This document shows, piece after piece, positions 933 through 1,144 of a DNA stretch of 64,000 bases. The stretch lies in IMG/VR virus record IMGVR_UViG_2751185632_000005, positions 1 through 64,000 of that record; one strand, written 5' to 3'. The translations under genes were made by a program, and so were the position numbers. The notes beneath the pieces were generated by a model. It was not told where the DNA came from. It worked only from the letters and a program-made list of their open reading frames with translations, and made no database searches. This DNA is from a virus. Its lineage: Duplodnaviria > Caudoviricetes. Within the stretch, counting starts at the first letter, position 1. Every line of letters begins with the position of its first letter.

Positions 933-984
933 GCCGGCGTAGCACAGCGGTAGTGCAGCGGTTTTGTAAACCGAAGGTCGGGAG
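933..984 (+). pseudogene. 5' part of split host tRNA-Thr(UGU), at attL
   Basis: GCCGGCG acceptor strand, D arm and TGT anticodon arm intact; no T loop or 3' acceptor strand; missing half at 16346-16391. Confidence 0.9.
962..984 (+). repeat. attL core, 23-bp direct repeat TTTTGTAAACCGAAGGTCGGGAG
   Basis: Identical copy at 16346-16368. Confidence 0.9.
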
Positions 985-1069
985 GCGAGAAGGCGAATCG
1001 GATCATGCGCTTAGGCGGCGCGCGGTCTGCGTAAGTACCGAATAGGCACCGAAGTCTCGGTGTCCGAGG

Positions 1070-1144
1070 GCCGGATTAGCACAGCGGTAGTGCAGCGGTT
1101 TTGTAAACCGAAGGTCGGGGGTTCGATCCCCTCATCCGGCACCA
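1070..1144 (+). tRNA. tRNA-Thr(UGU), complete, island-borne
   Basis: Full cloverleaf: GCCGGAT/ATCCGGC acceptor, TTCGATC T loop, encoded CCA. Confidence 0.97.

Follow-up and report, generated by a model that had tools for sequence, protein, structure and literature searches.

The DNA analyzed here comprises 64,000 nucleotides (positions 1 to 64,000 of the IMG/VR virus record IMGVR_UViG_2751185632_000005; Duplodnaviria, Caudoviricetes; hereafter the window), in which a host tRNA-Thr(UGU) gene is interrupted by an integrated island of 15,361 bp (985-16345, ~15.4 kb). Near its left end the island bears its own complete tRNA-Thr(UGU) gene and at its right end a tyrosine integrase gene (int), and between the repeats (985-16345) the G+C content is lower and patchy.

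The interrupted host gene and the island-borne tRNA

Read directly, the host tRNA-Thr(UGU) gene consists of a 5' part at 933-984 and a 3' part at 16346-16391, both on the plus strand. The orphan 5' part at the left attachment junction (attL) reads GCCGGCG-TA-GCAC-AGCGGTA-GTGC-A-GCGGT-TTTGTAA-ACCGA-AGGTC-GGGAG and comprises the acceptor 5' strand (GCCGGCG), the D arm (GCAC/GTGC), the anticodon arm with the loop TTTGTAA, the variable loop and the T-stem 5' strand (GGGAG). The sequence past 984 is unrelated to a tRNA 3' end, as it is in 15 related loci. The displaced 3' part at the right attachment junction (attR) reads TTTTGTAAACCGAAGGTCGGGAG-TTCGATC-CTCTC-CGCCGGC-A-CCA; it begins inside the same anticodon loop, ends with the terminal CCA, and for both the acceptor and the T stem it supplies strands that form exact pairs with those of 933-984. 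The two parts share an exact direct repeat of 23 bp (962-984 = 16346-16368), the left copy of which contains the crossover region, i.e., the anticodon loop TTTGTAA at 963-969, and the only other occurrence of this repeat within the whole 89-kb record is inside the island tRNA (from 1099). The broken copy (933-995) reaches 23.6 bits on the Rfam tRNA model, which is under the gathering score of 29, and the rejoined host gene reaches 66.7 bits. Moreover, the rejoined gene is letter for letter a tRNA-Thr allele of other Hyphomicrobiales loci (L060, and L017 and L037, where this allele is island-borne; L denotes a locus and G a genome).

The unoccupied site was observed directly. A contig of 151 nt in the public sequencing run X1, a biofilm metagenome, consists of 895-961 followed by 16346-16429, skipping 15,384 bases of which 23 are shared, with 0 and 2 mismatches in the two flanks; it is the empty site with an intact tRNA gene. 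The public runs consisted of contigs throughout, each with at most 26% of the sampled words, and within this material neither RNA evidence of a tRNA precursor nor a junction of a circular attP, the attachment site of the excised element, was seen. Other apparent joints in these runs were discarded as noise, their sides being merely 20-23 nt long. In Hyphomicrobiales relatives a single intact tRNA-Thr(UGU) lies downstream of a SpoU/RlmB-type gene, and in the window the gene for a SpoU/RlmB-type rRNA 2'-O-methyltransferase (34-876, plus strand; Pfam SpoU_methylase 1.7e-36, SpoU_sub_bind) likewise forms the left host flank. The right host flank is a GNAT acetyltransferase gene (16431-16901, minus strand; Pfam Acetyltransf_7/1/10); no synteny of the right flank with relatives was detected, a comparison that is uninformative, the nearest rlmB homologues being just 50-60% identical. 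The possibility that the GCCGGCG allele at 933 is itself a relic of an older island was rejected, as there is no arm-like sequence between this allele and rlmB.

The island tRNA (1070-1144, plus strand) is the only tRNA-Thr(tgt) called by ARAGORN and scores 67.3 bits on the Rfam tRNA model (E 1e-14); the record of 89,471 bases contains two tRNAs in total. It has the same orientation as the broken gene and starts 137 nt behind the former start of the host gene. Its acceptor stem (GCCGGAT/ATCCGGC) differs from that of the host gene (GCCGGCG/CGCCGGC) by compensatory changes and its T stem is GGGGG/CCCTC versus GGGAG/CTCTC in the host gene, while the anticodon stem-loops of both are identical. A hybrid origin of 1070-1144, with a host 5' part and an island 3' part joined at attL, was rejected since its two acceptor strands fit one another but do not fit the displaced 3' part. 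Across the island family described below, the acceptors of the island tRNAs are GCCGGAT, GCCGGGT, GCCGGCG, GCCGGTG, GCCGGAA and GCCGGCA, each with a matching 3' strand, and these compensatory changes among members indicate that the island tRNAs are maintained as working genes.

A first-pass annotation, made from the letters of the window, had proposed that the host 5' and 3' halves join perfectly, that the gene is not regenerated at attL and that a complete tRNA-Thr(UGU) with compensatory differences lies 85 nt inside the island. All of this holds: the join is supported by the exact strand pairing and by the X1 contig, which also provides the comparison with an empty site that this annotation had called for, joining 961 to 16346 in an intact gene; the repeat stops in the T-stem 5' strand and leaves 933-995 below the Rfam gathering score; and the ARAGORN and Rfam results as well as the stem differences of the island tRNA are as claimed.

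The attachment cassette and its recurrence in related islands

The 85-nt spacer between the orphan 5' part and the island tRNA (985-1069, plus strand) contains a conserved block, GAATCGGATCATGCGCTTAGG (995-1015), and the motifs GTACCG (1035-1040) and GCACCG (1046-1051). It is homologous to the corresponding sequence in the genomes G294 and G247, at the loci L017 and L037 and in 12 metagenome contigs. At the other end of the island, the sequence from the int start codon to the core (16200-16345, plus strand), the P arm of attP, carries arm-type motifs at 16219-16224 and 16231-16236 and is homologous to the int-proximal arms of L081, L083, G294, G247 and G316. For three family members attP was reconstructed, and the motif comparison rests on those three sites. 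In all of them pairs of the motif RYACCG, 11-12 bp apart, lie ~90-127 bp left of the core, adjoining the int start, and a mirrored RYACCG pair is found at +72/+83 from the core on the other side; a conserved block containing GATCAT is present in this second arm at 3/3 sites and in the P arm at 2/3. By these motifs the 85-nt spacer is identified as the P' arm of attP. The tRNA begins ~20 nt past the last arm motif, and the core, the P' arm and the tRNA thus form one cassette. The shared core is shorter in other members, namely the 7-bp loop TTTGTAA in G294 and the 9-bp sequence TTCCTAAAC in G247.

Homologues of the integrase are numerous in Alphaproteobacteria (at least 560, many of them 65-92% identical); none was found in the viral contig set. 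The first-pass annotation had suggested looking for the same arrangement of attP and tRNA in related islands, and 16 related loci (G294, G247, L017, L037 and the 12 metagenome contigs) turned out to share it: a host 5' half, a homologous arm of ~100 nt, a complete tRNA, and then the integrase and the host 3' part. G294, in which the integrase is 89% identical, also has tRNA-Thr(UGU) as target. On the minus strand of its locus L092, the host 5' half (17387-17351; acceptor GCCGGCA, D stem GCTC/GAGC) ends with TTTGTAA and is followed by a 100-nt arm homologous to 985-1069 and by an island tRNA-Thr(UGU) at 17250-17176 with the acceptor GCCGGGT/ACCCGGC. An island of ~15 kb, the integrase and the host 3' part (2370-2326) follow, and the TGCCGGC of the latter has its pairing partner in the orphan 5' half, not in the island tRNA. 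In G247, a single contig of 3.43 Mb, the integrase is 74% identical and the target is tRNA-Arg(CCU). Here, at L094 (G247:C1), a 5' half (4667-4705) is followed by an arm of 98 nt (4706-4803) and a complete island tRNA-Arg(CCU) (4804-4880), and the host 3' part (18957-19001) adjoins int. L094 moreover contains, 18 nt past the island tRNA-Arg, a tRNA-Thr 3' remnant (4897-4933, GGCCGGGGGTTCGATCCCCTCATCCGGCAC) that is almost identical to the 3' part of 1070-1144; it looks like the scar of a Thr-to-Arg cassette exchange.

The arm and the island tRNA-Thr of L037 and L017 (the latter in G001:C4, Mesorhizobium sp. Root157) were chance finds among rlmB flanks. Together with the 12 metagenome contigs, these two loci have the order host 5' half, TTTGTAA directly followed by TCGGAGGGCC, arm and full tRNA-Thr. 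In a scan with a P'-arm pattern, 73/85 matched stretches had no downstream tRNA, being chance matches or contig ends, and 0/6 viral matches was a family member. The attL ends of the Arg-targeting L081 and L083 lie outside the available sequence, in part because a contig stops within the element; the G316 contig ends as well, and in G068 no tRNA was found within 20 kb. Deviating arrangements were observed at two loci. At L090 (2230-2275, G157:C50) an integrase of 62% identity adjoins a tRNA-Arg(CCU) 5' half with a polarity opposite to that of this island, and at L074 a tRNA-Thr 5' half (7255) precedes a complete tRNA of identical sequence (9564) by 2.3 kb; both are family members that may regenerate the gene from the 5' side.

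Probable replacement of the host tRNA and alternative explanations

To assess whether the cell depends on the island tRNA, as the first-pass annotation had inferred, the whole genomes of relatives were scanned with a pattern combining the anticodon loop and the T loop, and the matches were checked by ARAGORN. The UGU matches in G294 were the island tRNA and the displaced fragment only, the same was true for the CCU matches in G247, and in G001 the sole UGU tRNA is the island-type tRNA-Thr. By established decoding rules ACA codons require a UGU tRNA, and dependence on the island tRNA is likely in the genomes of these relatives; by analogy, the host of the window is likely to depend on 1070-1144.

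The best explanation for these observations, and one that we hold to be very probable, is that the island breaks tRNA-Thr(UGU), that its attP does not restore the gene and that the island-borne tRNA substitutes for it. Strand exchange by the integrase would take place within the TTTGTAA anticodon loop of the host gene; as attP offers no usable tRNA 3' half, the gene ends up split, with the orphan 5' part at attL and its 3' counterpart at attR. The island tRNA would be transcribed from the host tRNA promoter as a precursor with a long leader, trimmed by ribonuclease P, and would take over the lost function, and precise excision would restore the host gene.

Several points weigh against this explanation. 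Transcription from the host promoter and processing of the precursor are steps that we infer, and a scan with an E. coli-type consensus detected no sigma-70-type plus-strand promoter upstream of 933 or in the spacer; a promoter and terminator consensus scan of 800-1300 likewise returned nothing on the plus strand. The 15 nt past the loop (ACCGAAGGTCGGGAG) are identical to the tRNA here, while nearly all relatives carry the diverged TCGGAGGGCC..GAG at this position; the tRNA-identical 15 nt within 962-984 may stem from gene conversion or from a refreshed core. Furthermore, an aberrant tRNA would escape the pattern scan, the assemblies of G294 and G001 are drafts, and the known host sequence is the 89,471-base record, so that a second tRNA-Thr(UGU) may exist elsewhere. 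The latter point would favor an accessory role of the island tRNA in codon supply or in resistance to anticodon nucleases, the host having another tRNA-Thr(UGU), and phage tRNAs were indeed proposed to counter tRNA-cleaving defenses (discussed in PMC10865867). However, the anticodon is always that of the broken gene, being Arg(CCU) when tRNA-Arg(CCU) is the target, the island tRNA always lies directly behind the broken gene, and no other intact tRNA with the same anticodon was found in G294, G247 and G001. Moreover, the island anticodon stem-loop is that of the host, so it would not allow escape from an anticodon nuclease. Taken together, this makes an accessory role very unlikely. It has next to no probability that the arrangement is an assembly artefact or the leftover of tandem or decayed islands: although the window comes from a virus record of the metagenome type and assemblers can be misled by tRNA repeats, independently assembled sequences, among them isolate-type genomes and the single-contig chromosome of 3.43 Mb, contain the same cassette, the acceptor halves match perfectly across the island, and an independent contig shows the empty site.

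The source of transcription deserves separate consideration. A putative host tRNA promoter (TTGCGC, 17 nt, TATTCG) lies at 895-923 on the plus strand, 9 nt ahead of the tRNA 5' end. It was compared between Phyllobacteriaceae sites that are native and empty (L014, L032), occupied (L163, L158, L037) or decayed (L017), and the host promoter region (TTTTGTCTTTACTGG...ATGCTAACCGGAG) is conserved across all of them. At the decayed site L017, in Root157, the P' arm and an island-type tRNA-Thr are found behind the conserved host promoter (~6590-6817), and the native 5' half is heavily mutated, with at least 8 substitutions and a 2-nt deletion. Orphan halves have also changed at other loci, with a 3-nt deletion in L037, a mutated anticodon in L132 and L171, truncation in L169 and loss of any recognizable sequence in L141. 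This pattern suggests that the promoter would be under selection as the driver of the island tRNA, with the orphan half unconstrained. A promoter within the P' arm that drives the island tRNA in place of the host tRNA promoter is, by comparison, rather unlikely. The tRNA of the actinobacteriophage Fionnbharth does have its own demonstrated promoter (PMC10865867), and the strongly conserved blocks of the spacer could hold a non-consensus alphaproteobacterial promoter; however, these blocks fit paired arm-type sites mirrored in the P arm, no promoter-like pair of hexamers is present and candidate -10 positions vary between members, in 16 of 16 loci the island tRNA has the orientation of the broken gene and lies ~130-140 nt behind its start, and L017 retains the host promoter despite the decay of its orphan half. 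An active host promoter would transcribe the orphan 5' half, with its D and anticodon arms, within the leader, and in this recent insertion the anticodon stem-loop of the half is intact. The first-pass annotation had considered the half a possible processing by-product or a decoy for an anticodon nuclease. A functional RNA such as a decoy is unsupported and highly improbable, since the orphan halves of the older insertions L017, L037, L132, L171, L169 and L141 are mutated, shortened or unrecognizable, as expected for neutral remnants.

Substitution by a complete island tRNA might also explain how these elements cope with divergent hosts. Carriage of a whole tRNA would free the element from the need for matching host acceptor and anticodon stems and permit entry into hosts with very different tRNA-Thr alleles. 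A host GCCCTTG acceptor is combined with an island GCCGGCG in L158, L163 and L037 and with an island GCCGGAT in L194, and the same island allele starting with GCCGGCG is found in hosts whose genes start with GCCCTTG, GCCCTTA or GCCGGCT (L163, L158, L037, L138). In these cases a hybrid tRNA of host 5' and island 3' sequence would contain up to five mismatched acceptor pairs. With the crossover in the anticodon loop, a borrowed 3' half has to fit the acceptor and anticodon stems of the host; a complete copy would remove this limit of host compatibility, which would be the rationale for carrying a whole tRNA and, if true, would let one integrase family cross hosts with incompatible tRNA alleles. 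Related evolutionary scenarios were raised for actinobacteriophages (PMC10865867).

In a small tree of the integrases, members with Thr and Arg targets are intermixed, the Thr-targeting integrases of the window and of G294 being sister to that of the Arg-targeting L081 (support 100/99). For Root157 (G001), no integrase homologue was found with the integrase of the window as query and no displaced 3' part was found in the genome, suggesting that the island tRNA has permanently replaced the native allele there. By blastn, no synteny downstream of the tRNA was detected between L017 or L037 and native Mesorhizobium loci. Overall, it is about evenly balanced whether such islands are vehicles for the permanent horizontal replacement of essential tRNA genes, possibly switching targets by an exchange of the cassette of core, arm and tRNA.

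Gene content of the island and relation to known elements

The left third of the island is cargo. An ATPase gene of the HATPase_c_3 family (1232-2105, plus strand; Pfam HATPase_c_3 1.9e-11 on 1232-1897) covers two overlapping frames, and its coding signal, measured as G+C at third codon positions (GC3), moves from the frame starting at 1232 to the frame 1566-2105; on this signal the gene is apparently frameshifted. It lies ahead of a plus-strand cluster encoding Vsr (2214-2630; Pfam Vsr 3.8e-30), a C5 cytosine methyltransferase (2627-3841; Pfam DNA_methylase 3.6e-59; PADLOC MTase_II) and an Eco29kI-type restriction endonuclease (3786-4463; Pfam RE_Eco29kI 9.9e-62; PADLOC REase_II). Next to this cluster a minus-strand gene encodes a Cro/CI-type helix-turn-helix (HTH) regulator (4495-4824; Pfam HTH_3 5e-15; PHROG transcriptional regulator and repressor families). 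The tail-completion or Neck1 protein (HK97 gp10-like; 6029-6466, minus strand; phrog_169 2e-34, Pfam HK97-gp10_like 1.6e-4) is encoded by the sole recognizable virion gene of the island. The interior furthermore contains a DUF3800 gene (9735-10964, plus strand; Pfam DUF3800 1.7e-6) in a patch of low G+C content (0.47-0.49), a ribbon-helix-helix (RHH) gene, a DUF2786 gene and several open reading frames (ORFs) of unknown function. The right part, transcribed from the minus strand, encodes a primase-helicase of the Prim-Pol/PriCT_2/VapE type as replication module (11680-14049; Pfam VapE-like 1.4e-72, Prim-Pol 4.9e-18, PriCT_2 1.3e-11), two HTH_17 proteins resembling AlpA and excisionases (13881-14135 and 14627-15211; Pfam HTH_17 3.4e-7 and 4.5e-6; phrog_66 excisionase) and the tyrosine integrase with an arm-binding N-terminal domain (15012-16199; Pfam Arm-DNA-bind_3 and Phage_integrase). 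The order int, HTH_17, HTH_17, PrimPol is common to the island and its relatives. Among the ORFs scanned against Pfam and PHROG, none matched capsid, portal or terminase families and the neck/tail-completion gene alone is virion-related, so the island is not a complete temperate phage. We therefore regard it as a putative phage-satellite-like integrative element with a type II restriction-modification system.

The breakage of a tRNA gene that is compensated by an element-borne tRNA is a published mechanism, termed tRNA-dependent lysogeny (Guerrero-Bustamante and Hatfull, mBio 2024, PMC10865867). Experiments demonstrated it in Fionnbharth and in Cluster L phages; the actinobacteriophage cases comprise Fionnbharth/K4, Cluster L, Cain/K6, Gaia/X and the Gordonia phages CQ2/DL, and for bacteria other than Actinobacteria the Lactobacillus johnsonii prophage Lj965 was named as a likely example (PMC10865867). 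How common the mechanism is elsewhere was a question posed by these authors (PMC10865867). Like the actinobacteriophages, the islands described here use a tyrosine integrase that has an arm-binding domain, their short core lies between paired arm-type sites, the attachment site attB is located within a tRNA gene, and close relatives within one integrase family have different tRNA targets (PMC10865867). The common core is 8-17 bp long there and 7-23 bp here, and because it is short the tRNA is not rebuilt in either group. The carriers are different, however: complete temperate phages in the one case, and in the other a satellite-like island of ~15 kb with one virion gene and restriction-modification cargo. 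Furthermore, the Fionnbharth tRNA is located at another place, where it overlaps gene 37, and is served by its own demonstrated promoter (PMC10865867), whereas the island tRNA has a fixed position directly beyond the P' arm and is co-oriented behind the host promoter. The targets also differ, being tRNA-Thr(UGU) and tRNA-Arg(CCU) of Alphaproteobacteria.

Within the same host order, Hyphomicrobiales, tRNA-Leu(UAG) of Sinorhizobium meliloti is disrupted by two Lo5R7ANS-like prophages that bring a copy of the gene with them; this copy, like the island tRNA, is similar to alleles from other Alphaproteobacteria (Int J Mol Sci 2024, PMC11476347). In contrast to the islands these are full prophages with a different tRNA and an integrase resembling that of phage Lo5R7ANS, and their description does not include a family-wide cassette, an arm structure or island decay (PMC11476347). 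With conventional tRNA-targeting islands (Williams 2002; Islander, PMC4383910) the islands share the crossover in the anticodon loop, the integrase adjoining attP and the displaced 3' fragment at the far end. In conventional islands, however, attP carries the tRNA 3' half and the gene is regenerated at attL (PMC4383910), whereas here it stays broken and the P' sequence next to the core, which is TCGGAGGGCC in most members, is merely a diverged echo of the tRNA. P4-like satellites and those resembling phage-inducible chromosomal islands (PICI) correspond in the order int, HTH_17, HTH_17, PrimPol/VapE, in their small size, in a single neck/tail-completion gene and in defense cargo; unlike in those satellites, neither a helper phage nor a packaging signal nor a gene for capsid redirection was identified for this island, so that its satellite status is deduced from gene content.

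In the open-access literature searched no description of this island family was found, which is not proof of its absence. New are the carrier, a satellite-like PrimPol/integrase island with restriction-modification cargo, the fixed cassette behind the host promoter, and the targets. The mechanism described in 2024 for actinobacteriophages is thereby extended to widespread, small, non-phage islands of Alphaproteobacteria as their standard design, in which the replacement tRNA belongs to the attachment cassette itself, positioned to use the host promoter. This opens a possible route for the exchange of essential tRNA alleles between distant bacteria. Moreover, island-mapping tools that look for a regenerated tRNA and a 3' fragment will misplace or miss such elements, and integration vectors derived from such integrases need the tRNA to be included.

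Two further tRNA-associated features were noted apart from the island. At 720-775 of L116, a short contig of a Pseudaminobacter metagenome-assembled genome (G002:C395), the 3' fragment of a further tRNA-Thr(UGU) allele stands alone; it has the acceptor AGGCGGC, ends with GCCA and may be a displaced piece of another insertion or a contamination. In the window itself, a tRNA-Gly(UCC) gene at 21475-21548 is followed by a minus-strand ORF of 412 aa (to 22853) with a faint match to an integrase N-terminus, and this region (21475-22853) is probably the attachment end of a prophage occupying the rest of the record.

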